Positions 536 to 40,524 are shown, counted from the stretch's first letter. The stretch is DNA of 64,000 nt from Desulfobacterales bacterium (GCA_016209225.1 JACQWO010000009.1:7444-71443); one strand, 5' to 3'. Numbers and translations are program-made. Notes: generated by a model from the sequence alone, not told the origin.

Positions 536-814
536 TTGCGGAAGGGAGTGGTCTTCGTGTATAAGAAACCAACAGTACGGGTTATGATCGGTTTATCTCT
601 TATTCTGCTCAGCTACGTTATATGCTGGCCTGCTATCGGCGTCCTCGGCGCAATATCCCTCCATATGAAGGAACCCCTGATTCTGACTGTCGGCGGCCCT
701 CTAATGTATGGGGTGTCTCATCTGGTGTTTTTAATAGGCGTATATTTTGCCGGTAGAGATTATGCCCTGGCATGTCTGAAACGGGTAAAGAAATTCTTGA
801 AGGAAAGAAAATGA
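536..814 (+). CDS. Small two-helix membrane protein at head of lipid cluster
   Basis: Two hydrophobic stretches; stop overlaps ATG of ACP (ATGA at 811-814). Start codon uncertain. Confidence 0.55.
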   Translation: MRKGVVFVYKKPTVRVMIGLSLILLSYVICWPAIGVLGAISLHMKEPLILTVGGPLMYGVSHLVFLIGVYFAGRDYALACLKRVKKFLKERK

Positions 815-1077
815 ATGAATTAGTCCGAGAACTGAAGGTTAAAATCGTTGAGACACTGAACCTCATTGACGTTCTCCCGAAGGATATAGATGAAGAGGCC
901 CAACTCATCGGAGGCGATATCGGGCTGGATTCCATTGATGTCCTGGAACTGGTCATGATGCTTGAAAAAGATTATGGTGTGAAGATTGACAGCAAGGAAA
1001 TCGGCGTCAAAGTATTTGCCTCCGTCAGGGCTTTGGCGGAGTATGTCCATCATCATCGTTCGGAGAGAAATGATTGA
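811..1077 (+). CDS. Acyl carrier protein (ACP-1)
   Basis: GLDSIDVLEL phosphopantetheine-Ser motif; acidic; likely start ATG 811 rather than 772. Confidence 0.9.
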   Translation: MNELVRELKVKIVETLNLIDVLPKDIDEEAQLIGGDIGLDSIDVLELVMMLEKDYGVKIDSKEIGVKVFASVRALAEYVHHHRSERND

Positions 1078-3257
1078 GCGGCACAGGTATTTTTATTACA
1101 GGGATGGGGATCATAAGCCCCGTCGGGCAAGGCATAGGCGATACGATAGAAGCCGTCAGGAAAGCCGTGGGGGGGATTAAACCGCTCCGTCTTTTCCCGA
1201 CGCTTCACGCCCAGCCCCTGCCTGTCGGCGAGATCGGTTCGTTCTCATCTGTAGAGACTGTCCCCCGAACCCATGCCCTTGCTCTTATTGCCGCCGAAGA
1301 GGCGATGAAACACGCCGACGGTGCGCCGGATGCCGTGATCATCGGCGTGACGACGGGGGGGATGTCCCTTACGGAGGAACTTTTAAAGTATGGCGAAGGC
1401 GATGCAAAACGGTATGAATACCACTCGACCGCCTCCGTCGCAGAGTATGTCGCACGTCGTATGGGCTGCCTGGGGCCGGTGCTGACGGTATCTACGGCAT
1501 GTTCCTCGGGAAGCGTGGCCCTGAAAATCGCCATGGCAATGCTTCGCTGCGGCAGGGCGAAGCGGATCTTGGCCGGCGGCGCCGATGCTCTATGCCGATT
1601 GACCTATTACGGTTTTCACTCCCTTCAGTTGGTTGATCCGGAGGGCGCCCGGCCTTTTGACAGAAACAGACGCGGAATGTCGGTAGGCGAAGGGGCGGCC
1701 ATGCTGCTGCTGACTGCCGCCGAAACCCCGCCGGGAAACGCCATTGCCGAACTTCTCGGGGCCGGTTTATCCTGTGACGCCTATCATCCAGCTTCACCAC
1801 ATTCCGAAGGCGCAGGGGCGCTGCGCGCCATGGAAGAGGCGCTTGCCGATGCCGGCATAACGCCTTCGGACATAGATTATATACATCTGCACGGCACAGG
1901 GACAATAGATAACGATATCGCCGAAGCAAAGGCTATATGCGCCCTGTTCAAGAGCTGTCCGATTCCTCCTCTGTCTTCCATAAAAGGATCCTTTGGGCAT
2001 TCTCTTGCGGCAGCCGGGGCGGTGGGCGCCGTCATGTCCGCTTTGAGCATTGTCCATGGCATCATCCCTGCCAATACGGGCTTTCACAATCCCGACCCCG
2101 ACTTAAACCTGATCCCCGTTGGTGCGCCGCTGGCGGCGGATGTGAACGTGGTCATTGCCAATTCTTTCGGTTTCGGCGGGAACAACGCAGTCCTCATCGT
2201 CGGCCATCCGAAACGACGAAGGGGCATAGAACCGCCGTCTTATGCCATCCAACCTATGTCGTTTTCCGTTATCGGAAGCGCATGCCTCACCGCTGCCGGC
2301 AGTTTAGAACAGACAATGGATCGTATGCGTCATGCCGAAGGGTTCCGAGGCATCGTTCCTCCTTCCGATATATTGCGGCCTCTCTCTGAGAAATCCGTCC
2401 GCCGCCTGAAGCGTTTTTCCCGTATGGTCTTGTCCCTGGCCGTTTCAGCCTGTAAAAATTCCGCAGCAGCCGGTCCGCCGGCATCGGTCTTTATGGGAAC
2501 CGGCTGGGGAGGGCTTTCTGAGACTCATGATTTTCTGACAAAACTCTTCGTCTCGAACGAACAGTTTACCAGCCCGACGGATTTTATCGGATCCGTGCAC
2601 AACGCCGCCGCAGGTCATGTCGCCATCCATTTCCAATCCACCGGGCCTAACGTGACGGCCACGGGCGGCGATTGCGCCTTTGAGCAGGCATTGTTTGCGG
2701 CAAGCCTCCTGGCTCATGATGGCGATAATCCGCTTCTTGTGATCGGCGCAGATGAATATCACGAAACATTATCCCCTCTCTTCGATGCCTCCGTGGCGAC
2801 CGCAGGGACGCCTTCAGACGGAGGGGGGGCTCTTTACCTTAAACCGGCGACGGCGACATCCCCATGCCGGATATACCCCTCTTTCATGGCTTATTCCGGC
2901 GGCAGCGGTCGGATCATCCCGGCGCTGATCCGCGCACTCGGGGGAGACAAAAGGATCAAGGAGCAATTTGGGGCCATTCTGGCGGGGATTCCCGCTGCAC
3001 AGAGGGAGAAGGGGAAGGGACAACTGGATGACTTCCTGTCCATGACGGGATACCCCCATCCCGTTATTGATTATCGGCAGTGCGTCGGTGAATTTGCCTC
3101 GGCGTCAGCCGTCGCGGCGGTACTGGGGGTCTTGTTTGTACAAGCCGGTGAAATCCCCGGAAATGTCTGCCATCAAAAGGCTACGCCATTGCTGGGACGA
3201 GGCGTTCTTGTTCTGGGATTCGGCAATTACATCACGGCAGTGGAGATTTTGCCATGA
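1074..3257 (+). CDS. Beta-ketoacyl-ACP synthase fused to C-terminal chain-length-factor-like domain
   Basis: N-terminal KS with TACSSG, HLHGTG, KGSFGHSL (Cys-His-His); C-terminal KS-like half with SPTDFIGSVHNAAAG resembling aryl-polyene CLF and lacking the catalytic Cys motif. Confidence 0.85.
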   Translation: MSGTGIFITGMGIISPVGQGIGDTIEAVRKAVGGIKPLRLFPTLHAQPLPVGEIGSFSSVETVPRTHALALIAAEEAMKHADGAPDAVIIGVTTGGMSLTEELLKYGEGDAKRYEYHSTASVAEYVARRMGCLGPVLTVSTACSSGSVALKIAMAMLRCGRAKRILAGGADALCRLTYYGFHSLQLVDPEGARPFDRNRRGMSVGEGAAMLLLTAAETPPGNAIAELLGAGLSCDAYHPASPHSEGAGALRAMEEALADAGITPSDIDYIHLHGTGTIDNDIAEAKAICALFKSCPIPPLSSIKGSFGHSLAAAGAVGAVMSALSIVHGIIPANTGFHNPDPDLNLIPVGAPLAADVNVVIANSFGFGGNNAVLIVGHPKRRRGIEPPSYAIQPMSFSVIGSACLTAAGSLEQTMDRMRHAEGFRGIVPPSDILRPLSEKSVRRLKRFSRMVLSLAVSACKNSAAAGPPASVFMGTGWGGLSETHDFLTKLFVSNEQFTSPTDFIGSVHNAAAGHVAIHFQSTGPNVTATGGDCAFEQALFAASLLAHDGDNPLLVIGADEYHETLSPLFDASVATAGTPSDGGGALYLKPATATSPCRIYPSFMAYSGGSGRIIPALIRALGGDKRIKEQFGAILAGIPAAQREKGKGQLDDFLSMTGYPHPVIDYRQCVGEFASASAVAAVLGVLFVQAGEIPGNVCHQKATPLLGRGVLVLGFGNYITAVEILP

Positions 3258-4735
3258 TGAGTGGAAGACAGACGCAGGGAGATGTCCTGATCATCGGTTC
3301 CGGCATCGGCGGTTTGACGGCCGGCATCATTCTGGCGAAACTCAATTGCCGGGTTACGGTCGTGGAAAGAAATCCCCTGCCCGGAGGATTGATGCGCGGC
3401 TATCTCCGGTCCGGCATTGAATGTCCCGTAGGGGTGCATTATATGGGCTCCCTCGGCAAGGGTCAGCCTCTCCGAAGGATGTGGGATTGTCTCGGCGTCA
3501 CTCCGTTGATCCCGGTCGAACGCATGGGTGCGGACGGCGTCATAGATCGCTATATTTTCGATGGTTTTACCTTCGATCTTCCCGAAGGCATTGACGCCTT
3601 CGAAGACAACCTTAGACGGTCCTTTCCCCTGGAGCACAGCCTGATTACAACGATCATGGACGATCTAAGGCGAACATCCCGCGCCCTGACCTCGCTCAAC
3701 ATCCTGATCTCGCCGGCTATGAGTTTGCTTTCGCCGGAGAGCTTTGAATCCATGGGAGAACAACTCTTGCGCATGGGTTGTTCAAGGCGTCTCCTCTCTG
3801 TCCTGGGAGTTCCTTCCACCCTTATCGGGCTTTCCTTGCGGGAATGCCCAGTTTTTTATTATCACATGACCATCGCCTCCTATCTCATGTCATCCTGGCG
3901 ATTAGCATGCAACAGTTCCCAGATGGCGGACGCGTTTGTGTCCCGTTTCATGTCACTGGGCGGTGATGTCGTTACCGGAGACGGCGTCGCAAGAATCCTT
4001 GTCCAATCAGGACGGGTGAAAGGCGTCGTTTTACAATCCGGCCGCATCCTTGAGGCCAGGAGCATCATTGCCGCGGTTCATCCCGGAACCGTCGTCGCAA
4101 TGTTGCCCGGAGACGCGGTCAGACCTGCTTATGTGGAGAGGGTTGCAGAACTTGAAAATACGAAAGGACTCTTTGTGGTGAATCTTGCCGTGGACGCCGA
4201 TGCGCATAAGGCGCTGTCCTACAACATCTACCGCCTTTACCCGGAAGAAGACGGAACCCTATCCCAAGGAGTATTTCATCAGTTGCGCAACAGCGGGCAG
4301 CCGGGGATCAATATCCTATCCATGATGACCACAAGCGGCATTGAGGAATGGCGGCAATGGGAAGGGACAACGTCCGGAAAACGCGGCAGTGACTATCTCG
4401 AGGCAAAGGAAAAGAAAGCCCGCCGGTTCATCGGCGAGGCTTCAAAGTTATTCGGAGACCTTAAGGGTATGAGGATACTGGACACCTATACTCCCTTGAC
4501 CATCAGGGACCGGGTAAACAGCCCGGACGGTTCTGCCTATGGGATTCTCCGCTCGACCGGACAATTTATGAAAACGGCTTCTTTGAATCGCACCTCTATC
4601 GAGGGGTTGTTCCTTGCCGGTCAGAACAGCATGGCCCCGGGGATTATGGGGACAACGATGGGATCTTTCCAGACGGTCAGAAACGTCATCGGTTACGAAA
4701 GATTCAGCCGGGAGGTTATGGGGGATTTCCTGTGA
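3254..4735 (+). CDS. Phytoene desaturase (CrtI)-like FAD-dependent oxidoreductase
   Basis: GSGIGG dinucleotide motif, VVERNPLPGG, TPLT...GSAYG and GLFLAGQ C-terminal motifs typical of the CrtI/retinol-saturase family. Confidence 0.85.
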   Translation: MMSGRQTQGDVLIIGSGIGGLTAGIILAKLNCRVTVVERNPLPGGLMRGYLRSGIECPVGVHYMGSLGKGQPLRRMWDCLGVTPLIPVERMGADGVIDRYIFDGFTFDLPEGIDAFEDNLRRSFPLEHSLITTIMDDLRRTSRALTSLNILISPAMSLLSPESFESMGEQLLRMGCSRRLLSVLGVPSTLIGLSLRECPVFYYHMTIASYLMSSWRLACNSSQMADAFVSRFMSLGGDVVTGDGVARILVQSGRVKGVVLQSGRILEARSIIAAVHPGTVVAMLPGDAVRPAYVERVAELENTKGLFVVNLAVDADAHKALSYNIYRLYPEEDGTLSQGVFHQLRNSGQPGINILSMMTTSGIEEWRQWEGTTSGKRGSDYLEAKEKKARRFIGEASKLFGDLKGMRILDTYTPLTIRDRVNSPDGSAYGILRSTGQFMKTASLNRTSIEGLFLAGQNSMAPGIMGTTMGSFQTVRNVIGYERFSREVMGDFL

Positions 4736-6084
4736 AAGTATTGCTCGTATCAACGAACACCATGATGGAGCCTTATCCGCCCTATCCGATCGGACTTGAT
4801 TATGTGATGAATGCCATATCACCGCCGCACCAGGTGAGAATAGCAGATATGAATGAACTGAAGGAAGGCGACGATACCCTGGCCGGGGTTCTTTCCGAAT
4901 ACCAGCCCGATATTATAGGTTTGTCCATCAGAAACATTGATAATATTGACGAAGCGAATGTGAAAACGTTCATCGGCGAAATCCGGGAATTGATAGGCAT
5001 CATCCGGGGACATTCGGGGGGATTTGTCGTTCTGGGAGGCAGCGGATTTACCATCCTGCCCGGCGAATTTATGAGCCGGCTCGATGCCGATTTCGGTGTC
5101 ATCGGCGAGGGGGAGCGGCTCCGGCTCCTCCTCCAGGCGATAGAGAGTAATGAAAGCGTTTCCGGCCTTCCCGGCATTGTGACCAGGGACAGTCCTGTTG
5201 TTTTCCCGGAACCATGGCCCCGGTCATTCCGCCGCAGTTTCCCCCCTGATCATTCCCATGCTTCTTTCTACCTGAAAAGAGGCGGCATGCTAAATCTACA
5301 GACAAAAAGGGGCTGTCCCTTCAAGTGCATCTATTGCACCTATCCCCATATAGAGGGAACGCGGTTCCGCTTTGCGCCACCAGGGGAAATCGCCGCTACG
5401 GCCAGAATGCTCCAGGATGCCGGAGCCGGGTATATCTATATAACGGATTCTACGTTTAACGGCAGCTACGAACATAGTCTGGATGTTGCGGCGGCATTTA
5501 AAAAAGCGGGCATTTCCGTTCCCTGGGGCGGCTTCTTCACCCCTCTGTCCCCGCCGCCGGACTATTACCGCATCCTTGCCGACGCGGGTTTGAGGCACGT
5601 CGAATTCGGCACGGAAGCCCTCTCAAATCCGATGCTCGCTTCATATCGGAAATCTTTTCGCCTTGAGGATGTTTTCACCTCACACAGGCTTGCCGTTGCC
5701 GCCGGTCTGCATGTCGCCCATTATCTCATGTTGGGGGGGCCGGGTGAAGATGAAGGCACGTTGAAAGAGACCCTGGCCAATGCCGATGAACTGGGAAAGG
5801 CCGTTTTCTTCGTTTTCAGCGGGATCAGAATTTTTCCTCACACCGCCCTGTATGATCTGGCACTTGAGGAAGGACAGCTCGAACGCGGCAGGAATCTTCT
5901 CGAACCGGCGTTTTATTGGTCGCCGGCCTTGCACCGGGAGACGGTTATGCACCTTGTGAAAGAACATGCCGGCAGTCGGGCAAACTGGGTTTTCGGTTCC
6001 GGCTCTCAACAGACGTTAAAAAATCTTGCGCGGCTGCATGCCCGGGGCCACATTGGACCTCTGTGGGAGCTCCTGATCCAATGA
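4732..6084 (+). CDS. Cobalamin-binding radical SAM protein, lipid-biosynthesis type (TIGR04072-like)
   Basis: N-terminal B12-binding domain (YPPYPIGL...GLSIRNIDN), TKRGCPFKCIYC; context next to KS/CrtI-like genes fits the family as I recall it (not HMM-verified). Confidence 0.8.
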   Translation: MKVLLVSTNTMMEPYPPYPIGLDYVMNAISPPHQVRIADMNELKEGDDTLAGVLSEYQPDIIGLSIRNIDNIDEANVKTFIGEIRELIGIIRGHSGGFVVLGGSGFTILPGEFMSRLDADFGVIGEGERLRLLLQAIESNESVSGLPGIVTRDSPVVFPEPWPRSFRRSFPPDHSHASFYLKRGGMLNLQTKRGCPFKCIYCTYPHIEGTRFRFAPPGEIAATARMLQDAGAGYIYITDSTFNGSYEHSLDVAAAFKKAGISVPWGGFFTPLSPPPDYYRILADAGLRHVEFGTEALSNPMLASYRKSFRLEDVFTSHRLAVAAGLHVAHYLMLGGPGEDEGTLKETLANADELGKAVFFVFSGIRIFPHTALYDLALEEGQLERGRNLLEPAFYWSPALHRETVMHLVKEHAGSRANWVFGSGSQQTLKNLARLHARGHIGPLWELLIQ

Positions 6085-6902
6085 AGCATGATGGGAAAAA
6101 GGAAGGATATGTTTCTCCGGCGGCGATGACCGGTTTTGTTGCCATCGCCCTGGCGTTTATCCTGTTCCCCTTTCATCCTGGGTTGGCAGTCATCCCCCTG
6201 TCTGTTTTTGTTTTTCTCTGTGTGATGGCCCCGTTTTTCCCGTCAAGGGGTTTCTTTTTGCCGGTCATCAGCCGGGGGCATACGGGAAGACCCGTGGTAT
6301 CCCTGACATTCGACGACGGCCCCGATCCGGTGACGACCCCGCCGCTTTTGCAATTGCTGGAACGGTACGCCGCAAGAGCCACCTTCTTCGTCACAGGGGA
6401 AAAGGCCGCCCAATATGGCAACCTTATTTCAGAGATACTTGCAGACGGCCACGACATCGGCAATCATTCGTACAGCCATGATCCCTTTTTAATGTTGCGC
6501 CGTTCTGAGAAGGTGTATCGGGAAATCGAGGCAACGCAGGTTTTGTTGAGACGTTTCGGCATCTCCCCTGTCGCTTTCAGGCCGCCCGTGGGCATCACCA
6601 GTCCTAAACTGGCCAATGCTCTGGAGCAACAGGGATTGCGCTGCGTCACTTTCTCCTGTCGGGCCTTTGACGGAGGGAACAGGTTTCTTCGAGATTTATC
6701 CGGGCGGATACTGAAAAAGGTCAAGCCGGATGACATTATCCTTCTTCACGATATCCGGCCGAAAGGGACGGTTGACGCAGAAGTCTTTCTGCGTGAGATG
6801 GAAGCGATCCTGTCCAGTTTGAAAAACAGAGGCTTGCAAGTTGTTCCCCTGGCCGAACTCCTGGGAAAACCGGTGATGATCAGGATCAATGGCGACGATT
6901 AA
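6081..6902 (+). CDS. Polysaccharide deacetylase (NodB/CE4) with N-terminal membrane segments
   Basis: TFDDGP, HDIGNHSYSH, FRPPVG, IILLHD motifs; likely start ATG 6081 overlapping previous stop. Confidence 0.85.
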   Translation: MKHDGKKEGYVSPAAMTGFVAIALAFILFPFHPGLAVIPLSVFVFLCVMAPFFPSRGFFLPVISRGHTGRPVVSLTFDDGPDPVTTPPLLQLLERYAARATFFVTGEKAAQYGNLISEILADGHDIGNHSYSHDPFLMLRRSEKVYREIEATQVLLRRFGISPVAFRPPVGITSPKLANALEQQGLRCVTFSCRAFDGGNRFLRDLSGRILKKVKPDDIILLHDIRPKGTVDAEVFLREMEAILSSLKNRGLQVVPLAELLGKPVMIRINGDD

Positions 6903-7272
6903 CGACGATATCTGTGATCCTGCCTGGTATCAAGAAAAAGTCAGCCACCACTATCGGCTAAAGTTGACAGATCGGGGCATAGAGGCGTCTTACCCTCTAT
7001 TTTGCGCCTCTTTGCCGGTTAACCTGGGCAGCCCCATATAATTATTCCAGCGCTCAGCTCTGCATAGGAATTGTGTTTCCCCATGGCAGACTATGCCGGT
7101 GGATGTGGATGGCAATGTTACCATATGCGATTGTCAGCCAAACCGGCCTATTGGAAACCTCCTGAACCGTCCTTTATGGGAAATATGGAATGGTAATGCC
7201 ATGGTAGAACATCGGCGGCGTATGCTTAGCAGCGATCCCCCTGAAAGTTGCAGGGGCTGTCCGCGCTTTTAA
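6889..7272 (+). pseudogene. Eroded radical SAM gene retaining only a SPASM/twitch-type C-terminus
   Basis: Frame from ATG 6889: MATINDD...SPI*(TAA 7039-7041)LFQRSALHRN-CVSPWQTMPVDVDGNVTICDCQPNRPIGNLLNRPLWEIWNG...CRGCPRF* (TAA 7270-7272). No CxxxCxxC core remains. Confidence 0.75.
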
Positions 7273-7280
7273 TAATCTCC

Positions 7281-7307
7281 TTGACATTCTCCATCCCCCG
7301 TTATAAT
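7281..7307 (+). promoter_or_regulatory. Possible sigma70-type promoter for the lipoprotein gene
   Basis: TTGACA (7281) and TATAAT (7302) are both consensus, but the 15-nt spacer is short. Confidence 0.4.
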
Positions 7308-7353
7308 CTTCCCCCAAAAGAAAATTCCTATTTTTGAAAGGAGGAGATAATCC

Positions 7354-7761
7354 ATGAGAAACAAAGTATTTAAGTCCTTCGTTTTGGCCTTCTTGTTATT
7401 TACTATCGTTAGTTGCGCCGGTACGCCAATAATAACCATGGTGAATGGTAAATCATGGCTATCCGGTAAATCGGCTCCGCCAGAGGCCAACGTGGATGGG
7501 ATTTGGTTGTCGAAAGAATTTGGTGGGATAACACTCAAACAGGCTCAGGACAGCCGGGATGTTTCAGGAAGTACCATGGATGGTTGGAATATTAATGGCG
7601 TTGTTTCTGGGAAGAGAGTCTTTCTCTTCTTTTCTGACGAGGTCAGAATCGTCTATTCAGTAGTTTTAACGGCAGTGTCTGAGAAGGAACTCACCGGAGT
7701 GTGGGCAAGAGAGCTCATTAATGAGCAGTCTAAGACCGAGCCGGTGATGTTACAAAGATAA
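7354..7761 (+). CDS. Lipoprotein of unknown function
   Basis: Basic N-terminus, hydrophobic stretch, lipobox IVS-C; AGGAG RBS. Confidence 0.7.
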   Translation: MRNKVFKSFVLAFLLFTIVSCAGTPIITMVNGKSWLSGKSAPPEANVDGIWLSKEFGGITLKQAQDSRDVSGSTMDGWNINGVVSGKRVFLFFSDEVRIVYSVVLTAVSEKELTGVWARELINEQSKTEPVMLQR

Positions 7762-7764
7762 AGA

Positions 7765-7886
7765 GTAACTACTTCGGTTCAAAGTTCCGGGGTTCACGGT
7801 TCAAGGTTAGACTGTGGATTCATGAACTATCTCAAGAAAAATTAAGAGCGCAAGCCAACCGTGAACCGTGTACCTTAGTCAGTTAC
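7765..7886. repeat. ~122-bp palindromic element with GTAACT...AGTTAC termini
   Basis: Left arm GTAACT...GGTTCACGGTT, right arm AACCGTGAACC...AGTTAC; same termini and length as 62715-62837. Confidence 0.65.
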
Positions 7887-8003
7887 GATAAATACAGCCC
7901 CGTTTGTTTTATAGCCCTGAAATGTGAAGCTGTCAAATTCCACACGGCATCTTTAGCCGTTTTCATACCTGCTGGCTTCATTATCATTTAGTGAATTCCG
8001 AGC

Positions 8004-9524: not shown

Positions 9525-9613
9525 TAGAGACTGTTCCGAAAAAACTGAGGATTCCTTTAACTACTTGTAGTTAGATGTAATTTGTGATCATTCTAATAAA
9601 ACTGCAATAAGCA

Positions 9614-12482: not shown

Positions 12483-12527
12483 AAGTTATGGATGTGATGA
12501 CCGATTCTATTGTCAGGAGGATTATGA

Positions 12528-17557: not shown

Positions 17558-17558
17558 C

Positions 17559-18038: not shown

Positions 18039-18118
18039 AAAGCGCCTAAAGTGAACTAAAATTTTTTAACTTCCAACTTTACACTTTAGTAACCATTAGG
18101 GAGTGTTTGGGAACAAAT

Positions 18119-25396: not shown

Positions 25397-25441
25397 GGCA
25401 CAAAACCAAAGGTCTGCCGGATCTCATGTCTTTTCGTTTCA

Positions 25442-28275: not shown

Positions 28276-28288
28276 ATTGTTTCCTGTT

Positions 28289-30362: not shown

Positions 30363-30399
30363 GTTGCTTTGCTCCTATGACATGTCTTAATGTTAACCC

Positions 30400-32686: not shown

Positions 32687-32719
32687 TATCCAGATTAGAA
32701 CAGGAAAAGTAAAAACGCC

Positions 32720-33139: not shown

Positions 33140-33222
33140 AATGCTTTTTAAGACATATTCATATTACTTCGTGATGTTTTCATATAACCTCGACACACGA
33201 GTGTTTCAGTTACGGTGGACCC

Positions 33223-34674
33223 ATGAAAAAGGGAATTCGCGTCGGAAAGCACATATTGCTTGTCCATCCACGTGGTTATAACTGGTTTCCCGGTCATCGT
33301 GATATCACAGATGTCGCGAATCGTATGGCCCCTCAGGGGCTGCTTTCCATTGCCGCTTATCTGTTAGAACAAGGGCATGATGTTTCCATTTACGATTGTC
33401 TTGGGCCGGGTGTTCCCTTTAATCTCCATAAGCAAATTAAAGAGATATTGGATTATAAACCGCAGGTTGTCGGATTTTCGGCCACAACGTCTTCGTTTCC
33501 TGATGCCGCAGATATGGCGCAGAAAATCAAGGAACACGCCTCGCATATTAAAACTGTTTGCGGAGGCGTACATGTTTCTGCTTTGGAAGGCGAACTGCTG
33601 CGCGCTTATCCCGCCTTTGATTTTCTTTGTACCGGCGAGGGCGAGCTCACAATGGCGGACCTTGCCCAAGAGATTGATCCCTCGGAAATCAAGGGGTTGA
33701 TATGGCGTCAAGATTCCCAGGTGTTTACTAATCAGCCACACCCACAGATAGCCGATTTGGACAGCCTCCCTTTTCCCGCTTATGAAAAGCTTAAAGGCTT
33801 TCCTCACGATTACCATCTGCCTTTGTTCAGCTATGTCAATACGCCCGGGGCGACAATGATTACGTCACGGGGCTGCATGTATCAATGTTCTTATTGTGAT
33901 CGTTCCGTTTTTAAAAAGGGATTTCGTTATAACTCGGCTCCTTACATATACGAACATATAAAATATTTGAAGACAAGATTTAGTGTGCGGCATATCAATA
34001 TTTATGATGATTTGTTTACAGCAGATCGCGCACGTATTGCTGAGCTCTGCGAAAAGCTCGCTCGTTATCCATTGGGGATTAATTTCAACTGTGCCGTGAG
34101 GGTGGGCTATACTGATGACGAATTACTCAAAATGCTGAAAGATGCGGGTTGCCTTATGGTTTCTCTGGGCATAGAATCAGCAAACTCACAAATATTAGCC
34201 AGGCACAAATCCGGGGTTTCGCTTGATGAGGTGCGTGCTGCCGTAAAACAGATTCAGGCCGCAGGACTGCGGGCAAAAGGACTATTTATAATGGGTTTAC
34301 CGGGAGAAACGGAAGAATCTATTCGACAGACATCTGATTTTATTATTTCGTTGGGGCTGGACGACATGAATATGTCCAAATTTACCCCCTTTCCCGGGGC
34401 GCCGCTTTGGCCAACTATTAAGGAAGAAGGAGATTTTAATGAAGATTGGCGGCTAATGAATTGCCTCAATTTTGTTTTTATCCCCAACGGGATCGCCTCA
34501 AAGGAGAGATTGGATCTGCTTTACAATAAACACGTGAAGCGTTTTTACTCTGATCCTGAGTGGCGCAGGAAATTCCGACGTCGTCTTTGGCAACACCGTA
34601 AAAGTCTTGCGTATTTAATTCGTCATTTGCCGTCGTTCTGGTTGGCCAAGCGCCGGTTTGAGCCCGGCAGATGA
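33223..34674 (+). CDS. Cobalamin-binding radical SAM protein
   Basis: APQGLLSIAA, VVGFSATT, GGVHVS; TSRGCMYQCSYC; IYDDLF. Confidence 0.85.
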   Translation: MKKGIRVGKHILLVHPRGYNWFPGHRDITDVANRMAPQGLLSIAAYLLEQGHDVSIYDCLGPGVPFNLHKQIKEILDYKPQVVGFSATTSSFPDAADMAQKIKEHASHIKTVCGGVHVSALEGELLRAYPAFDFLCTGEGELTMADLAQEIDPSEIKGLIWRQDSQVFTNQPHPQIADLDSLPFPAYEKLKGFPHDYHLPLFSYVNTPGATMITSRGCMYQCSYCDRSVFKKGFRYNSAPYIYEHIKYLKTRFSVRHINIYDDLFTADRARIAELCEKLARYPLGINFNCAVRVGYTDDELLKMLKDAGCLMVSLGIESANSQILARHKSGVSLDEVRAAVKQIQAAGLRAKGLFIMGLPGETEESIRQTSDFIISLGLDDMNMSKFTPFPGAPLWPTIKEEGDFNEDWRLMNCLNFVFIPNGIASKERLDLLYNKHVKRFYSDPEWRRKFRRRLWQHRKSLAYLIRHLPSFWLAKRRFEPGR

Positions 34675-34683
34675 AGTTTATCA

Positions 34684-34766
34684 GTAGCTACTCAGGTAGA
34701 TAGACTGTAGGCTTTTAGACTGTAGGAACGGTCTATACGCAACGACTAACAGCCTTCAGCCTAAAC
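34684..34766. repeat. Partial palindromic element (GTAGCTACTCAG left terminus; AGACTGTAGG x2; CCTTCAGCC)
   Basis: Left terminus resembles GTAACTACTCAG; internal units relate to the 16.2 and 19.6 kb repeats. Confidence 0.45.
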
Positions 34767-34780
34767 ACAGGTAGATAGAG

Positions 34781-35629
34781 ATGTATATGCGTATTCGTCA
34801 TGGGATGATGCTAACTTTAATGCTCTCGGTATTTCTATTATCCCAAAACGCTATATGTGAGGAAAAACCTCTCTGGGAAGCGGGGGTAGGATTGGCATTT
34901 CTCCATATGCCCGATTACCGTGGTTCTGACGAAAAAAGATTTCTGCTGCTGCCGTATCCTTACCTTGTCTATCGCGGTGATATTTTAAAAGTCGAAAGGG
35001 AGAGTATTTCAGGACGCATTTTTAAAACTGACAGACTTTTATTGGACGTCAGCTTCTTTGGTAACAGACCGGTTGATAGTTCTAAAAATACCGCCCGCAA
35101 CGGTATGCAGGATCTGGACCCCACTTTTGAAATAGGTCCCTCTTTAAATATAACGCTACTGGAAAACCGGCAAGACCATTATAAATTGAATTTTTCTTTA
35201 CCGTTGCGTGCTTTTTTTTCAACCGATTTTTCATCGCTGCGACATGAAGGTTGGATATTTAGTCCTCGATTGACTTTCGAAAAAACCGATTTCATTCCTG
35301 AGAGCGGTTTGAACCTGGGGATTTCAACTGGGCCGATTTTCGCCGACAGCGCCTACAATAAATATTTTTATTCGGTCGAACCTGGTTATGCTACTGCAAC
35401 ACGTCCTTCCTATGATGCCGGTAGCGGATACAGTGGTTCCACGCTTACCATCGGTTTAAACAAAGGATTCAGACAATTTATCTTTAATGCCTTTGTCAGC
35501 GTGGATTTTCTCCAGGGCGCCGTTATTGAAGATAGTCCCTTAGTAAAAACCAAATATTCCGTCATGAGCGGATTTGCCGTATCCTGGATCTTCCTAAAAT
35601 CAGCAAAACTTGTACCTACCGGAAGGTAA
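34781..35629 (+). CDS. MipA/OmpV family outer-membrane protein
   Basis: Signal peptide; PLWEAGVG...PDYRGSDE...LLPYPYLVYRG; C-terminal aromatic beta-strand. Confidence 0.8.
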   Translation: MYMRIRHGMMLTLMLSVFLLSQNAICEEKPLWEAGVGLAFLHMPDYRGSDEKRFLLLPYPYLVYRGDILKVERESISGRIFKTDRLLLDVSFFGNRPVDSSKNTARNGMQDLDPTFEIGPSLNITLLENRQDHYKLNFSLPLRAFFSTDFSSLRHEGWIFSPRLTFEKTDFIPESGLNLGISTGPIFADSAYNKYFYSVEPGYATATRPSYDAGSGYSGSTLTIGLNKGFRQFIFNAFVSVDFLQGAVIEDSPLVKTKYSVMSGFAVSWIFLKSAKLVPTGR

Positions 35630-35738
35630 AAAAATTTAATTTGAGTCAATTCGCTGTTTACGAACGTCAATTCTATGAAAAACAACTTGTAGCTTGAACC
35701 GAATTGGTATCCACTATTGACGACCGACCTCATGGAGG

Positions 35739-36470
35739 ATGGTAACCGGACTTATGGACAAAGACCGCGTTGTTGTAGTGATTCCCGTGTACAACCATGA
35801 AAGTAAGGTTGCCCAAGTGGTTAGGGAAGCCCTGAAGCTTCGCTTGCCCCTGTTCGTTATAGATGACGGATCAACGGATTCCACTTACGACCGGATAAAA
35901 GACATATCTTCCATAACCATTATACGTCATAGCGTCAACAGAGGGAAAGGGGCTGCCATTATGACCGGTTTTGCCGCGGCCGCCACATCGGCGGACTGGG
36001 TTGTCACCATGGATGCCGACGGACAGCATCATCCCAAAGATGTCTGTAATCTGATCCGTGCTGTCCCCCCTGGAGAAAGGCCCATCATCGTCGGTCAAAG
36101 GGAGAAAATGAATCACCGGCATGTGCCTTGGAAGAGCCGTTTCGGCAGGTTGTTTTCCAATTTTTGGGTACGGACATGCGGAGGTCCAAACATCCGTGAC
36201 ACCCAAAGCGGATTCAGACTGTATCCCTTACCGGAAGCCATGCATCTCAATGTCAGGGCGCGGCGTTTCCAATTTGAGGTTGAGATTCTGGTCAGGGCAA
36301 AATGGCAGGGAATTCCTGTTCTGGAGACACCCGTCCGAGTGACGTATGATGCCAAAGATGAAAGGATCTCTCATTATCGCGGTTTCATTGATTTCTTCCG
36401 GAATGCGGGCACCTTCAGTCGTTTGATCTTCGTGAGATTATGTGTATTGCCCTTCATACGAGGGAAATAG
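35739..36470 (+). CDS. Glycosyltransferase family 2 (ApeJ GT-domain-like)
   Basis: VIPVYNH, DDGSTD, NRGKGAA, DADGQH, DTQSGFRLY. Confidence 0.9.
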   Translation: MVTGLMDKDRVVVVIPVYNHESKVAQVVREALKLRLPLFVIDDGSTDSTYDRIKDISSITIIRHSVNRGKGAAIMTGFAAAATSADWVVTMDADGQHHPKDVCNLIRAVPPGERPIIVGQREKMNHRHVPWKSRFGRLFSNFWVRTCGGPNIRDTQSGFRLYPLPEAMHLNVRARRFQFEVEILVRAKWQGIPVLETPVRVTYDAKDERISHYRGFIDFFRNAGTFSRLIFVRLCVLPFIRGK

Positions 36471-37977
36471 GTTTATGCGCAGATACCTTTTGAGATGGCT
36501 CCTTGTGGTCTTCGTAATTTTAGCTGTCATTGGACTTTTTACGGCAGGGATATACCGTCTGCAATTCGATACCGATCTCCTGGCATCCCTTCCCCAAAAC
36601 GATCCCGTTTTGGCCGATGCCCGTTACGTCATTATGCATCATCCAATTCAGGACCGTGTGGTTATTGATGTGGGACATCCCGGCATGGACATAGATGTCC
36701 TTGCTGAAGGGGCAGACACAGTTGGGGCAAGAATGCTGGATAGCGGCCTTTTCAAGGAGGTGGGGTTCCAACAGATCGCTCAACTGATGCCGGAGCTTAT
36801 TCAGCATCTTGTCGCTCACCTCCCCATCCTTTTCAGCAGGGAGGAACTCGAAGAAAACATCAAACCACTTCTGACGCCTGAAAAGGTTCGTCAGACCATG
36901 AATGACCATTTTTCTTCCCTGCATCTTCTTGACAGCATCGGCCAGACGGGGTTTATCTCCGATGATCCCCTTGCCTTGCGAAGCCTTATTCTGTCTCGTT
37001 TATCACATCTTTCACCGACAAAAGGCGCCAGGATACATAAAGGTCATATAGTCTCACCGGACGGGAGACACATTTTGATCATTGCAAAGCCTTTGATTTC
37101 CGGTATGGATACACGGTTTGCAGGACGGATCACGGCGCTGATGGAAGAGATCTCCGTAGAACTGCAAAAGAAGTATGGTCGGCAGAACGGATTCACCATA
37201 ACGCCCGTCGGCGCCTATCGCGCTGCCCTTGATAATGAGATCAGCGCCAAACGTAATGTTAAAAGGGCGGTTCTTTTTTCAACCGTTGCCATTGCTATGC
37301 TGCTCTTCGCGGGTTTTCCCAGACCCCTGATCGGACTGCTGTCCCTTTTGCCGGCCTTTGCCGGTACCATGGTGGCGTTTTTTGTGTATTCTCTTTTTTA
37401 CCCCTCCATTTCTATGCTGGCCGTCGGTTTTGGCGGAGCGATTATTTCATTTACCGTAGATTACGGTGTAACCTACCTTCTTTTTCTTGATCGTCCGTAC
37501 GAAACACGCGGCATGGAAACCACAGCAGAGGTCTGGTCCCTGGGTCTGCTTGCCATGCTGACGACGGCTGTCAGTTTTGCATTTCTCTCTGTAAGCGGAT
37601 TCCCCGCTCTGGTGCAGATAGGACAGTTTACCGCTCTGGGAGTGGTGTTTACCTATATTTTTGTTCATCTCTTCTTCCCGCTGATATTTCCCGTGATGCC
37701 CCCCGCAAAACGGTCTCCTTACCTGCCGCTGCAGCGTTTCATCAACAAAATAGCATCTTCTCAGGGTATTTGGAAAACGTATGCCGCATTGACTTTCGGG
37801 GTTGCCATGTTGTTTTTCGCCAAGCCGGAATTTCATGCCGATCTGAATACCATTAACGCAGTTAGCCAGGAGACGTTAAACGCCGAGAAAACCATTCGGG
37901 ATGTATGGGGGGACATATTCAGTAAGGTGTATCTCATGGTTGAAGGACATGATCGGCATGATCTGCAGCAAAAATGA
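36442..37977 (+). CDS. MMPL/RND-type lipid exporter, N-terminal half (ends at in-frame TGA)
   Basis: TM helices after a periplasmic domain, VDYGV motif; TGA 37975-37977 is in frame with the next ORF. Likely start ATG 36475. Confidence 0.75.
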   Translation: MYCPSYEGNRFMRRYLLRWLLVVFVILAVIGLFTAGIYRLQFDTDLLASLPQNDPVLADARYVIMHHPIQDRVVIDVGHPGMDIDVLAEGADTVGARMLDSGLFKEVGFQQIAQLMPELIQHLVAHLPILFSREELEENIKPLLTPEKVRQTMNDHFSSLHLLDSIGQTGFISDDPLALRSLILSRLSHLSPTKGARIHKGHIVSPDGRHILIIAKPLISGMDTRFAGRITALMEEISVELQKKYGRQNGFTITPVGAYRAALDNEISAKRNVKRAVLFSTVAIAMLLFAGFPRPLIGLLSLLPAFAGTMVAFFVYSLFYPSISMLAVGFGGAIISFTVDYGVTYLLFLDRPYETRGMETTAEVWSLGLLAMLTTAVSFAFLSVSGFPALVQIGQFTALGVVFTYIFVHLFFPLIFPVMPPAKRSPYLPLQRFINKIASSQGIWKTYAALTFGVAMLFFAKPEFHADLNTINAVSQETLNAEKTIRDVWGDIFSKVYLMVEGHDRHDLQQK

Positions 37978-37983
37978 GACCGT

Positions 37984-39576
37984 ATGGCCGATTTGTTAAA
38001 TCAAGAAGTAGCAGCCGGCCGGCTTTCCCAGGCATTTGTTCCTTCCATGATTTTCCCGGGCGAGGAGGAGGCGCATAAAAATTTTGCAGCCTGGCAGCAG
38101 TTCTGGAATCCTGATCAGATTGCCAAGCTTCGCAAAGTCATGGAAGATACATCACGGCCATTAGGTTTTTCGCCGGCCGCTTTCGATCCGTTTTTTACGT
38201 TGCTCGCTAAACGGGACATGCAGGGAACAGACATGCCGGAGAGGTTTTCCGGCCTTCTTGGCATATCGGTGGACCAGGATCGGTCTACCTGGGTACAGGT
38301 TGCTGCCCTGATACCAGGACCTGCGTATGCGGCAGAGGATTTTTACAGGCGTTTCACGGCAACGGGTCAGGCGAGGGTATTTGACCCGGCCCTGTTCAGT
38401 AAACGCCTGGAAGCAACCCTCCTGTCCGCTTTTATAAAAATGGCAGTTATTATAAGCATAATCACGATTTTGACGGCTTTTTTATATTTTCTCGACTGGC
38501 AGCTAACCCTTATCAGCATGGCGCCGACCCTCTTCGCCATGGTCTGTACCCTCGGCACATTGAATCTCATCGGGCAGCCCCTCAGTATTCCGACTCTCAT
38601 GGTATCCGTGGTGGTCATCGGAATGGGAACGGATTACGCTCTTTATCTGGCGCGTTCCTACCAGCGTTATCTTGATGAAGATGAACCTTACCTGGGACTG
38701 ATCCGTCTATCCGTTTTTCTCTCCTTTGCCACGACTTTTCTTGGTTTCGGCGTCCTGGCGCTTTCCGATAATGCCATGCTGAAAAGTGCGGGATTGGGCC
38801 TGGCTCTGGGGATTGGCTATTCTTTCCTGGGCGCCGTGACGATTCTACCGCCCGTGCTGAAACGGATATTTACCCTGAAACCTCCGGCGGATGAGGCGGT
38901 AGCCCCAGGATCAAAAACGCACCGTCAGCGCGCCGTCCGGCGGTATCGGCATATGGAGCCCTATCCGAGATTCTTTGCCCGCTTCAAGATCATTCTCGAT
39001 CCTATGTTTCCGCGTCTCGCTGCTTTCGTCAAATATCCGGAAATCATCATAGATGTGGGCTCTGGTTTTGGCGTACCGGCTGTCTGGCTTCTCGAGTTGT
39101 ACCCTCGTGCACGGCTCTATGGGATTGAACCAAATCGTAAGCGTGTCCGATTCGCGTTGCAGGCGATCGGGACAAGAGGTAACATCGAAATCGGAAGCGC
39201 TCCCCAGGTACCTGATGTCCCCGAAAGGGCCGATACGGCGCTTCTCCTCGATATGATCCATTTGTTGACCGATGACAAGTTCAGCTTGACTTTAAAACGC
39301 TTGCACGGAAAGCTTCGTCCGGACGGTTCTTTGATTATCAGGGCGACGATTCCTTCGGGAAAACGCTTTCCCTGGAAGCGATGGATCGAGATGACGAGGC
39401 TCCGGATGCATAAAGGTATACCACACTTTCGTTCGGAGAAGGACATCCTATCCATCATATCGGAGGGAGGATTCGACATTACATGCACGGAAATCAGCGC
39501 GCCGGGCGGGGAAGAGTGGTGGTTCGTCGCCAAGCCGAGCGCCCGGGAAGAGAAAATAGCTGTACCGGCGTCATAA
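37984..39576 (+). CDS. MMPL exporter C-terminal half fused to class I SAM methyltransferase domain
   Basis: Second TM bundle (GMGTDYA), then IIDVGSGFG SAM-binding motif and LLDMIH. Confidence 0.75.
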   Translation: MADLLNQEVAAGRLSQAFVPSMIFPGEEEAHKNFAAWQQFWNPDQIAKLRKVMEDTSRPLGFSPAAFDPFFTLLAKRDMQGTDMPERFSGLLGISVDQDRSTWVQVAALIPGPAYAAEDFYRRFTATGQARVFDPALFSKRLEATLLSAFIKMAVIISIITILTAFLYFLDWQLTLISMAPTLFAMVCTLGTLNLIGQPLSIPTLMVSVVVIGMGTDYALYLARSYQRYLDEDEPYLGLIRLSVFLSFATTFLGFGVLALSDNAMLKSAGLGLALGIGYSFLGAVTILPPVLKRIFTLKPPADEAVAPGSKTHRQRAVRRYRHMEPYPRFFARFKIILDPMFPRLAAFVKYPEIIIDVGSGFGVPAVWLLELYPRARLYGIEPNRKRVRFALQAIGTRGNIEIGSAPQVPDVPERADTALLLDMIHLLTDDKFSLTLKRLHGKLRPDGSLIIRATIPSGKRFPWKRWIEMTRLRMHKGIPHFRSEKDILSIISEGGFDITCTEISAPGGEEWWFVAKPSAREEKIAVPAS

Positions 39577-39588
39577 TCAAATGAGGCG

Positions 39589-40524
39589 ATGATGAAGGAA
39601 ATTTTCTACCGGTTTTTAATCGCCCTGTCGAAGCGAATGGGACAGTGGGTGTTCCTGGTTATAGCCTGGGGCATTGCCTCCGGCTATTTTTTCCTTTTCC
39701 CGGGTAGGGTAGCCGTAAGCGTACGATTTTACAGGGCTCTCTTTCCGTCAAAGCGATGGTTACATCATCTCCGGTGCACGTGGAGGCAGTATCACCATTT
39801 TCCGCACGTATTTCTGGACAGGTTTTTACTATCCGATAACCATAATATTGCCATTGCCTATACCCAGGAAGGGTGGGAATATCTTGAGGATGCCGTAAAC
39901 AGGAAGATCGGCGGCATTATTCTCATGTCCCATGTAGGAACCTGGGAAATTGCCGCTCATTTGCTTCAGTCCAGGGGCCGGAATAATCCGGGGATGAAAC
40001 TGCTTCTCTACCTGGGACAAAAGCACAAAGAGCAGATTGAACGGATGCAGAAGGAGAGCCTTATCCGGAGCGGCGTGAAGATTATCGCCGTGGAACGGGA
40101 AGGGGGATCCCCTTTTGATGTTGTCGAAGGCATCAACTTTCTGAAGGCGGGCGGACTGGTTTCTCTGACGGGTGACCGTAAATGGCGTGAAGACCAGCGT
40201 TCCATACCTGTACGATTCCTGGGGCATGAGGCCTTCCTGCCGGAAACCCCCTTTGTCTTTGCCCTGCTGTCCGGCTCCCCTCTTTTCATCTTTTTTGCGT
40301 ATCGGACAGGCAGACATACATACCACGTTGAAATCATGCCGCCGGAATATGTCTGTGCGCAAGGACGCAAGGACAGACAGGACGCCATCAGAAGTGCGGC
40401 GCAGGCTTATGCCGAACGTCTTGAGGATACCGTACGGCAGCATCCCTTTGAATGGTACCATTTTGAACCCTTTCTCGGCCGGAAACTGGATGAAGAATGT
40501 CCGCACAACAATGGTCAAACATGA
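39589..40524 (+). CDS. Lipid A lauroyl (LpxL/HtrB)-like acyltransferase
   Basis: SHVGTWE, LTGDR, VRFLG, HPFEWYHF motifs. Confidence 0.8.
   Translation: MMKEIFYRFLIALSKRMGQWVFLVIAWGIASGYFFLFPGRVAVSVRFYRALFPSKRWLHHLRCTWRQYHHFPHVFLDRFLLSDNHNIAIAYTQEGWEYLEDAVNRKIGGIILMSHVGTWEIAAHLLQSRGRNNPGMKLLLYLGQKHKEQIERMQKESLIRSGVKIIAVEREGGSPFDVVEGINFLKAGGLVSLTGDRKWREDQRSIPVRFLGHEAFLPETPFVFALLSGSPLFIFFAYRTGRHTYHVEIMPPEYVCAQGRKDRQDAIRSAAQAYAERLEDTVRQHPFEWYHFEPFLGRKLDEECPHNNGQT

Follow-up and report, generated by a model that had tools for sequence, protein, structure and literature searches.

What does a 40-kb set of type II fatty acid synthase/polyketide synthase (FAS/PKS) genes that includes seven radical S-adenosylmethionine (SAM) enzymes (rSAMs) make, and how did it reach the genome in which it is found? 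The question is raised by a stretch of 64,000 nucleotides deposited as DNA of a Desulfobacterales bacterium (GCA_016209225.1 JACQWO010000009.1:7444-71443, henceforth the window), in which six-frame open reading frame (ORF) prediction with Pfam and NCBIfam scans revealed 36 genes between positions 536 and 40524 (g01 to g36, Table 1). We find that these genes form one transferred genomic island and, judging from their content, we think it rather probable that the island belongs with the 'ladderane-like' clusters, which extend the aryl-polyene (APE) type II PKS/FAS family and are widespread and still uncharacterised.

The gene set is a single inserted island

The window sits on contig C2 of a 3.10-Mb genome that is 98.5% complete and assembled in 95 contigs. 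Nucleotide alignment to three congeneric genomes (G006, G001, and G002) revealed flank homology of 87-97% identity that runs up to window position 518 and resumes at 40573, and thereby sets the limits of the island at 519-40572. In all three congeners the site is empty: a 79-residue ORF is followed by ~90 bp and then by the acyl-CoA ligase gene that lies downstream of the island here. The preliminary description of this locus had drawn the cluster from 536 to 40524; all 36 genes do lie within those bounds, but the inserted DNA itself extends beyond them on both sides. The insertion point falls between the ribosome-binding site (RBS) of the host ligase (GGAGGTAAA) and its ATG, the sequence of the empty site being GGAGGTAAAAATG, and the last bases of the island (AGGAGAAGACCCAAAATG) give the ligase a replacement RBS, a new AGGAG. 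Overlap at the island ends amounts to an A-run of at most 2 nt; no repeat of at least 8 nt, whether direct or inverted, and no att-like site was found at these ends, and the domain scans detected no integrase or transposase domain in the island ORFs.

The island also stands out by composition, with a GC content of 51.0% vs 43.0% for the genome and a GC content at third codon positions (GC3) of 0.56 vs ~0.42 in the flanking host genes. An abrupt GC shift at both ends, in an assembly of 95 contigs, is what one would also expect had a foreign 40-kb piece been joined into the host contig by an assembly or binning error. Such an artefact is hardly conceivable here, however, because the host sequence carries on to either side at the very point where the three congeners are contiguous, and because contigs L104-L108, which stem from separate assemblies of four sequencing runs in the series SRR12113399-406, span both junctions at 100% identity, which rules out a chimera.

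The relatives of the island lie outside the genus of its host. No match over the cut-off of TIGR04072, the NCBIfam model that recognises g05 (see below), and no orthologue of g13 was found in the six same-genus or the 12 same-family genomes. A Syntrophaceae contig (L012) shares 92.0% nucleotide identity over 5.85 kb of the island, and a second contig (L002) 84-89% over ~16 kb. By maximum likelihood, g05 falls within a clade of 14 Syntrophales sequences that has 100/100 support. When all 39 window proteins were compared by tblastn with the fetched loci and extended contigs, a Syntrophales metagenome-assembled genome (MAG; G041) was found to hold nearly the whole gene set at 65-89% amino acid identity within ~40 kb, including the coiled-coil protein g09 and the cobalamin (B12)-dependent rSAM g08. 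Thus, an empty site in close relatives, a deviant composition, and closest relatives in another lineage together identify the cluster as a single, precisely inserted, horizontally acquired genomic island. The sequence comparisons point to another Syntrophales lineage as its donor. The host itself, an uncultured organism, is a Syntrophales-affiliated member of the Desulfobacterota, since its mutase is 98% identical to that of the MAG 'Deltaproteobacteria bacterium CG12_big_fil_rev..._43' and 85-89% identical to those of Syntrophales/Syntrophaceae MAGs.

Superclusters of this Syntrophales type (JBKQQP010000026.1, here G041; CAZIPU010000001.1, G042; and CAYVMK010000005.1, L002) have nearly the same gene set at 58-95% amino acid identity, but their gene blocks are rearranged relative to the window, where the cluster forms an island that the rest of the genus lacks. 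In all three, the LpxL-like acyltransferase gene is followed at once by the counterparts of g01 and the acyl carrier protein (ACP) gene g02 (L002:820-2434; G042, as L090:13159-14832), except that in G041 the orthologue of g08 lies between. In the window these same genes occupy the opposite ends of the island (39589-40524 and 536-1077), so that the window order is a cyclic permutation of the order in its relatives. A circular intermediate opened in the LpxL-ACP1 intergenic region would explain the permutation, although we found no direct evidence of one.

The segment at 7354-11728 (g07 to g09) separates the deacetylase gene g06 from the ApeI-like gene g10, which are direct neighbours in all Syntrophales relatives. 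In G041 the coiled-coil protein (69%) and the g08 orthologue (68%) lie at other positions of the cluster; orthologues of g08 (68-69%) sit between LpxL and ACP1 in L005 and L033, and g07 is not found at this position in the Syntrophales relatives. Orthologues of g24, for their part, occur in Desulfobacterales and Syntrophales clusters at 69-82% identity.

The core of the island resembles aryl-polyene clusters

Every component of the inventory given in the preliminary description was located by the domain scans: three ACPs, four ketosynthases (KSs) and a chain-length-factor (CLF)-like domain, dehydratases (DHs), FabG, thioesterases (TEs), five B12-dependent rSAMs, two other rSAMs, and the remainder. 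The ORF at 536-814, previously read as an ACP, proved to encode a small membrane protein without a Pfam match. The scans further revealed a FakA-DegV fusion, a 704-residue coiled-coil protein, two lipoproteins, MipA, and a split transporter.

The core ape genes encode KS (apeO/R), ACP (apeE/F), CLF (apeC), DH (apeI/P), ketoreductase (KR; apeQ), and transporter (apeM), and APE clusters place two different chains on two ACPs, which are joined to a GalNAc-phosphate-glycerol backbone to give one lipid (10.1101/2020.12.19.423268). Set against the APE lipid clusters apeA-R of E. coli CFT073 and Xenorhabdus doucetiae (10.1101/2020.12.19.423268; PMC8253772), the island has counterparts of all core genes, a tentative one (g28) in the case of apeP, and by this measure its core corresponds to an APE-type set, as had been proposed for it from its KS/CLF, DH, KR, ligase, glycosyltransferase, TE, LolA, and MMPL genes. 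Indeed, it encodes KSs of ApeO/ApeR type, a CLF partner devoid of the catalytic triad, and ACPs (three, where APE clusters have at least two), together with a FabG-type KR and no enoyl reductase (ER). Also common to both are the ligase (ApeH), TE (ApeK), family 2 glycosyltransferase (GT2; ApeJ), acyltransferase (ApeD), methyltransferase (ApeB), LolA-like carrier (ApeL), and an exporter of the resistance-nodulation-division (RND)/MMPL type. Among the exporter components the LolA match is clear and the RND transporter is split, while DUF3261 (ApeN) has a weak counterpart in g25, the domain being matched in only two of six orthologues (E 1.3e-3). No ApeG-like gene (COG4648) was recognised in the island.

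There are also differences from APE clusters. In the island the KS and CLF are fused, and the RND transporter, besides being split, is fused to a methyltransferase. Found only in the island are the seven rSAMs, a CrtI-like enzyme, a deacetylase of carbohydrate esterase family 4 (CE4), the FakA-DegV fusion, three extra KSs, a phosphopantetheinyl transferase (PPTase) fusion, and MipA. The ammonia-lyase with a 4-methylideneimidazole-5-one (MIO) cofactor also sets it apart from APE clusters and recalls flexirubin clusters, and the host is a strict anaerobe, unlike APE hosts. Since the published apeA-R list holds no rSAM (10.1101/2020.12.19.423268), the rSAM load does exceed that of characterised APE clusters, as was first noted from the sequence.

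The chain-building proteins retain their expected active sites. A DSxD site is present in all three ACPs and an intact Cys-His-His triad in all four KS domains, whereas the C-terminal domain of g03 (Ketoacyl-synt_2, 53.8 bits) lacks all three residues. The best PDB matches of g03 are 9s5h_B (194 bits), the ishigamide KS 6kxd, and the APE KS 6qsp, which are KS/CLF structures of the polyene type; 9s5h is probably the Brocadia amxFabF heterodimer, to judge from its date and from bioRxiv 10.64898/2026.05.19.726425. Pfam scans of the island ORFs revealed no ER domain of the FabI/K/V type, the sole short-chain dehydrogenase/reductase being the FabG-type g27. The second candidate DH, g28, has no Pfam match of its own and owes its ApeP-like designation to its orthologues; hhalign comparisons of the g28 family with g10, and of the g25 family with LolA, gave no signal. 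The CrtI-like gene g04 is translationally coupled to the KS-CLF gene; its product scores 77 bits with CrtD, far under the cut-off, and a PDB sequence search found no close relative.

A putative starter enzyme is g23, a lyase with the MIO motif ASG at residue 151 that falls below the NCBIfam cut-offs for HutH and for tyrosine and phenylalanine ammonia-lyases (TAL and PAL). At the selectivity position it has a Phe-His pair (NIIRFHGCGTG). The FHGCGTG stretch is kept in the cluster-associated orthologues (G044 and L016), and a Spirochaetales lyase of 29% identity has SHAAGTG in its place. At this position TALs have His-Leu, PALs Phe-Leu, and histidine ammonia-lyases Ser-His. We rejected a plain histidine ammonia-lyase, as g23 scores under the HutH cut-off and has Phe-His rather than Ser-His, the residue mapping being indicative only.

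Seven radical SAM enzymes, including a conserved tandem pair

The CX3CX2C motif is present in all seven rSAM proteins. Five of them (g05, g08, g20, g24, and g31) combine this core with an N-terminal B12-binding domain, the features of class B rSAMs, the B12 domain of g08 scoring under the Pfam cut-off (26.6 bits vs 32.1). The Radical_SAM_N2 plus DUF4070 architecture of g08, whose motif reads CPNNCDFC, is typical of the cobalamin-dependent class. Only g05 (motif CPFKCIYC) is a member of TIGR04072, a family that takes its name from the anammox 'ladderane' candidates, with 391.1 bits against a curated cut-off of 360 and alignment over positions 1-443 of 443; the other four B12-dependent rSAMs score 54-105 bits and are non-members. 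To characterised enzymes g05 bears only a distant resemblance, namely to TsrM and BzaD and, in a PDB search, to TsrM, AprD4, and CysS.

The remaining two, g12 and g13, are paralogous (hhalign probability 100) and carry an invariant C-terminal CCx(n)CxxC in addition to CX3CX2C. A confident AlphaFold2 model of g12 (pLDDT 89.8) matched only generic SPASM/twitch folds by Foldseek, best among them SuiB, SkfB, and anSME at a TM-score of ~0.5, and a PDB sequence search with g12 was uninformative. The conservation of this tandem pair far exceeds that of the other cluster genes. Across 401 genomes sampled evenly from the phylum, on which our survey is based, g13 is 71-80% identical in 28 other genomes from at least 10 families, and the top 120 relatives of g12 are all at least 70% identical to it. 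Members of the g12 family bear no annotation beyond 'radical SAM protein' and fall into at least 2057 clusters at 90% identity; the g12 superfamily is compact, with 81 representatives at E <=1e-30 after clustering at 50%. Acting on ACP-bound chains, the rSAMs could perform methylation, desaturation, or C-C bond formation.

The island is related only distantly to the anammox loci

A B12-rSAM/CrtI-like/deacetylase island had been described as shared between anammox bacteria and some Desulfobacterota. The Kuenenia loci kuste3335-3352 and kuste3603-3608 are the anammox 'ladderane candidate' loci (PMC2649909; PMC10139942); even in anammox bacteria no experimental link to ladderanes is known. Common to them and the island are a TIGR04072 B12-rSAM, a KS with an inactive partner, an ACP, a FabA/FabZ-like protein, a CrtI-like enzyme, a ligase, a GT2, an MMPL protein, and methyltransferases. 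In a Brocadiaceae genome, likewise, one protein exceeds the TIGR04072 cut-off (428 bits), and its gene lies in a locus (L037) of the order KS, CLF-like, methyltransferase, KS, KS fragment, ligase, rSAM-SPASM, B12-rSAM, ACP, FabA-like, methyltransferase, MMPL, CrtI-like, and GT2. The shared family and gene kinds are thus borne out, but the claim is not supported for the deacetylase, no homologue being present within 10 kb of the TIGR04072 gene in the Brocadiaceae genome, and anammox and window proteins are only 23-37% identical. In the tree, g05 and the Brocadiaceae enzyme fall in separate, well-supported clades; close anammox orthologues of g12 and g13 are lacking; and in the anammox locus we located neither the tandem rSAM pair nor the lyase nor the LolA/LpxL set. 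Around a second TIGR04072-like Brocadiaceae gene (C12), no FAS-type genes lie within 9 kb. On these comparisons the two systems appear to share gene kinds while being distant and not orthologous. Anammox 'Cluster I' has been claimed to be exclusive to ladderane producers (PMC10139942), an exclusivity that our sequence data bear out for the orthologues and not for the cluster type.

Could the island nonetheless direct the synthesis of ladderane-like or polycyclic lipids, the TIGR04072 enzyme and the tandem pair forming rings by the same chemistry as in anammox bacteria? The common family of g05 and the Brocadiaceae rSAM and the likeness of the loci would fit, as would a best solved relative of the KS domain that is probably the anammox amxFabF heterodimer. 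We consider this very improbable in view of the low identities, the separate clades, and the missing anammox counterparts of g12 and g13, and also because ladderanes have been found only in anammox bacteria and not in D. psychrophila (PMC2649909), and TIGR04072 occurs in about a fifth of Desulfobacterota genomes, a group from which no ladderanes are reported. Moreover, no match to hydrazine synthase (PF18582) was found in the 98.5%-complete genome, by which we rejected the possibility that the host is itself an anammox bacterium.

Synteny of such clusters was found between Kuenenia on the one hand and Desulfotalea, Geobacter, and Pelobacter on the other (Rattray et al. 2009; PMC2649909). In Desulfotalea psychrophila, Geobacter, and Pelobacter carbinolicus, these FASII-like loci encode SAM-radical and phytoene-dehydrogenase-like proteins, a 'phenylacetyl-CoA ligase', a glycosyltransferase, and a membrane protein (PMC2649909); compared by description, they belong to the same family as the island, the window holding the larger Syntrophales type with its seven rSAMs. 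For the D. psychrophila loci the same work proposed another product, namely polyunsaturated fatty acids or hydrocarbons made by an anaerobic pathway. Applied to the island, this would make desaturases of the CrtI-like enzyme and the rSAMs, and neither an aryl starter nor a glycolipid would be involved. D. psychrophila does make polyunsaturated hydrocarbons (PMC2649909), the island has no ER, and its CrtI-like gene is coupled to the KS-CLF gene. We regard this pathway as quite improbable all the same: a free hydrocarbon would have no need of the MIO lyase, the aryl-acid-type ligase, the GT2, the deacetylase, the lipid acyltransferases, or the export set; no OleABCD-type genes were seen; and in D. 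psychrophila the hydrocarbons have never been tied to the cluster by genetics.

The hopanoid side-chain tailoring set of HpnI (GT2), HpnK (deacetylase), HpnJ (B12-rSAM), and HpnN (RND) provides an analogy only. HpnJ is the best model for g31 (193 bits), yet all scores lie far under the family cut-offs and no hopanoid genes are present; HpnK presumably belongs to a deacetylase family other than that of the CE4 enzyme g06.

Distribution and variants of the cluster

The cluster is neither rare nor new as a type. It was described by Rattray et al. 2009 (PMC2649909), antiSMASH surveys record 'ladderane' clusters in Desulfobacterota (PMC9902471), and TIGR04072 is matched over the cut-off in 78 of the 401 phylum genomes (~19%). 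Known since 2009 and covered by NCBI annotation models, the type is still uncharacterised. What we add are the exact limits of this island, the empty site in its congeners, the transfer among Syntrophales, the cyclic permutation, and the gene-by-gene mapping onto APE clusters.

Near-complete copies are found in many Syntrophales MAGs, whereas other genomes hold parts of the set, which bears on whether the island makes one product at all. Two or three independent pathways might travel together, one making an APE-type pigment or lipid (g01-g06 and g22-g36), another an rSAM-modified fatty acid (g10-g21) that feeds phospholipids through the PlsC-like enzyme. Desulfobacterales loci (L015, L018, L024, L058, and L016) indeed have the APE-type part, g05/g06, and g24 without the CrtI-like gene and g10-g21; in other loci g05 is joined straight to g10-g13, up to g16 in L014, L019, and L023, and export genes are absent within 10 kb; g13 orthologues occur in six genomes without a strong TIGR04072 match; and gene order between the blocks is freely rearranged. 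Against such a division, 22 of the 28 genomes with g13 also have TIGR04072, in 18 of them no more than 21 kb away on the same contig, the blocks entered this genome in one piece, and APE clusters are known to put two chains on two ACPs for one lipid. We therefore judge separate pathways to be unlikely.

Two variants were seen in passing. Locus L014 (JACNGQ010000165.1, 'Planctomycetota bacterium NIOZ-UU13') is a 5.8-kb contig in a 6.7-Mb MAG with g05 and g10-g14 at 56-79% identity, and reflects either a cross-phylum transfer or a misbinned contig. In a closed 4.57-Mb contig (ENA ERZ21831019; L109), the CE4 deacetylase and a SAM methyltransferase form one fused protein (6107-7582), and the interval between the CrtI-like and TIGR04072 genes contains an additional B12-rSAM gene on the opposite strand.

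Gene layout and surroundings

The island genes are arranged in three transcription blocks, 536-23589 (+), 23675-30828 (-), and 31292-40524 (+), with frequent start/stop overlaps of 1-4 bp (1077/1074, 3257/3254, 4735/4732, 6084/6081, 18385/18382, 20510/20507, and 26998/26995).

Table 1. Island features and the adjoining host gene, in window positions (TM, transmembrane; FAD, flavin adenine dinucleotide).
Feature	Product	Position	Strand	Basis or remark
Island	Whole inserted island	519-40572		40,054 bp; same-genus homology ends at 518, restarts at 40573
g01	Small 2-TM membrane protein	536-814	+	two hydrophobic spans, no Pfam match; shorter 76-residue form probable
g02	ACP1	772-1077	+	PP-binding 37 bits; GLDSID motif
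g03	Fused KS/CLF	1074-3257	+	KS N and C domains plus Ketoacyl-synt_2
g04	CrtI/CrtD/CrtISO-like FAD oxidoreductase	3254-4735	+	Amino_oxidase, NAD_binding_8; 4-bp overlap each side
g05	B12-rSAM 1	4732-6084	+	TIGR04072 (rSAM_ladder_B12) member
g06	CE4 polysaccharide-deacetylase-family enzyme	6081-6902	+	Polysacc_deac_1 101 bits; start overlaps g05
g07	Predicted lipoprotein	7354-7761	+	signal peptide plus Cys; no Pfam match
g08	B12-rSAM 2	8004-9524	+	Radical_SAM_N2 + DUF4070 type
g09	704-residue coiled-coil protein	9614-11728	+	coiled-coil-type Pfam noise only
g10	FabA/ApeI-like dehydratase	12036-12482	+	FabA 37 bits; ApeI-like (PF22818) 33.3 bits vs cut-off 28.5
g11	ACP2	12528-12794	+	PP-binding 42 bits
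g12	SPASM/twitch-type rSAM	12817-13899	+	weak Radical_SAM Pfam match; CX3CX2C
g13	SPASM/twitch-type rSAM, in tandem with g12	13914-14912	+	weak Radical_SAM Pfam match; CX3CX2C
g14	FabF-like KS	14955-16205	+	intact triad
g15	FabF-like KS	16292-17557	+	intact triad
g16	4HBT-fold TE	17442-18038	+	4HBT_2 48 bits
g17	ACP3	18107-18385	+	PP-binding domain; DSxD
g18	KS 4	18382-19629	+	intact Cys-His-His
g19	PlsC-type (lysophospholipid) acyltransferase	19737-20510	+	Acyltransferase 74.6 bits; AGP_acyltrn domain
g20	B12-rSAM 3	20507-22054	+	BchE/HpnR-like, no family over cut-off
g21	PS-DH-like N-terminal part fused to Sfp-type PPTase	22054-23589	+	ACPS 36 bits; PS-DH 18.7 bits, under cut-off
g22	FakA-like (Dak2 + middle domain)::DegV fatty-acid-binding domain fusion	23675-25396	-	Pfam/NCBIfam scans
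g23	MIO aromatic-amino-acid ammonia-lyase	25442-26998	-	Lyase_aromatic 510 bits
g24	B12-rSAM 4	26995-28275	-	Pfam/NCBIfam scans; CX3CX2C
g25	Lipoprotein, weakly DUF3261/ApeN-like	28289-28996	-	DUF3261 match in 2/6 orthologues, E 1.3e-3
g26	LolA-like carrier	28993-29697	-	LolA 61.6 bits
g27	FabG-type KR	29634-30362	-	adh_short_C2 206 bits; S...YxxxK
g28	Putative ApeP-like hot-dog dehydratase, 142 residues	30400-30828	-	ApeP-like (PF22817) in 7/8 orthologues, best E 4.5e-5
g29	Adenylate-forming ligase	31292-32686	+	best specific model 4-coumarate-CoA ligase, 105 bits, under cut-off
g30	4HBT TE	32720-33139	+	Pfam scan
g31	B12-rSAM 5	33223-34674	+	best model HpnJ 193 bits, under cut-off
g32	MipA-family outer-membrane protein	34781-35629	+	Pfam/NCBIfam scan
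g33	GT2 glycosyltransferase	35739-36470	+	best model polyprenyl-phospho-HexNAc synthase, under cut-off
g34 + g35	RND/MMPL transporter split in two genes	36442-39576	+	MMPL, HAE3 matches
g36	LpxL/PIM-type lipid acyltransferase, last island gene	39589-40524	+	Lip_A_acyltrans 62 bits
Host gene	Acyl-CoA ligase	40576-42120	+	outside cluster; adjoins 79-residue ORF in G006, G001, G002

Several gene calls are informed by relatives. The small membrane protein g01 is kept beside ACP1 in L002 and L007; g06 corresponds to 273 residues by the gene call in L082; and the true start of g16 is probably near 17555, since its orthologues begin at the stop of g15. The second transporter gene, g35, bears the C-terminal SAM methyltransferase, and the split is supported by an hhalign probability of 97% between g34 and g35 and by a TM pattern of 1+5 and 5. 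No exact protein match for g36 is on record. An Rfam scan of the whole window found no RNA families or riboswitches, and counts of promoters and terminators in the 22.5-32 kb region did not exceed those in shuffled sequences.

The host sequence upstream of the window encodes a methylmalonyl-CoA mutase, an MFS transporter, acpP-fabF, an M48/TPR peptidase, and the 79-residue ORF. The housekeeping acpP-fabF pair (L001:4670-6170) lies 2 kb upstream of the island, whose arrival beside core fatty-acid synthesis genes could be chance. With a B12-dependent mutase encoded 5 kb upstream, the host uses cobalamin in any case. Downstream of the pair formed by the host ligase and a CoA-disulfide-reductase gene, GC content falls to 0.38-0.41 in the 44-57 kb part of the window, which holds small genes of nucleotidyltransferase type, a 1197-residue ORF, and a minus-strand operon with rSAM-like genes.

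A proposed pathway and its product

With the gene content, families, limits, transfer, and distribution of the island established above, we infer each chemical step and the product as follows. The product would most likely be an exported, APE-lipid-like polyene (glyco)lipid tailored by rSAM enzymes. The MIO ammonia-lyase g23 would make the starter, likely an aryl-acrylate, which the ligase g29 would load onto an ACP. The fused KS-CLF, FabG, and the ApeI/ApeP-like DHs would then extend it to a polyene, a chain predicted to stay unsaturated because KS-CLF, KR, and DHs are present and an ER is not. A second sub-module (ACP2/ACP3, the three further KSs, and a TE) may provide one or two further acyl chains. 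The CrtI-like enzyme, the five cobalamin-dependent rSAMs, and the tandem pair could alter the chains or the head group through methylation, desaturation, or the making of C-C bonds, and the PlsC-like and LpxL-like acyltransferases, the GT2, and the CE4 deacetylase would complete an APE-lipid-like glyco(phospho)lipid. By analogy with APE clusters, three ACPs, four KSs, two TEs, two acyltransferases, a GT2, and a deacetylase would build a multi-chain glyco(phospho)lipid, whose transport to the outer membrane would fall to LolA, the DUF3261-like lipoprotein, the split RND transporter, and MipA.

Several points weigh against this proposal. No rSAM scores over the cut-off for a characterised family, so none can be assigned a reaction. 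The lyase g23, with its Phe-His pair and scores under all NCBIfam cut-offs, offers no assignable substrate, and the ligase g29 falls under every specific cut-off, that for 4-coumarate-CoA ligase included. The ApeP-like and DUF3261-like assignments rest on weak matches of orthologues and not on the window's own proteins. Finally, the sub-modules occur apart in other genomes, so that the whole island may not serve a single product.

Implications

Such clusters are the sole genetic lead to ladderane biosynthesis, and one of the few proposed cases of rSAM chemistry on fatty-acyl rather than isoprenoid lipids (PMC13459092). Our analysis shows that a complete supercluster with seven rSAMs moves between lineages as a single 40-kb unit without a recognisable mobility gene, and that it provides a natural with/without pair in the same genus with a precisely empty site. 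Since it moves as one unit, the 36-gene set is likely to be largely self-contained, having its own PPTase, ACPs, ligase, and exporter, and would be a defined candidate for heterologous expression.

It is conceivable, if speculative and distinctly unlikely, that the Syntrophales-type supercluster makes a lipid class undescribed in Desulfobacterota, an (aryl-)polyene glycolipid into whose chains the TIGR04072 enzyme and the tandem rSAM pair introduce cross-links, rings, or multiple C-methyl groups, and that this chemistry was an ancestral step to anammox ladderane synthesis. If true, the non-anammox carriers would be a tractable system for learning what these rSAM enzymes do.

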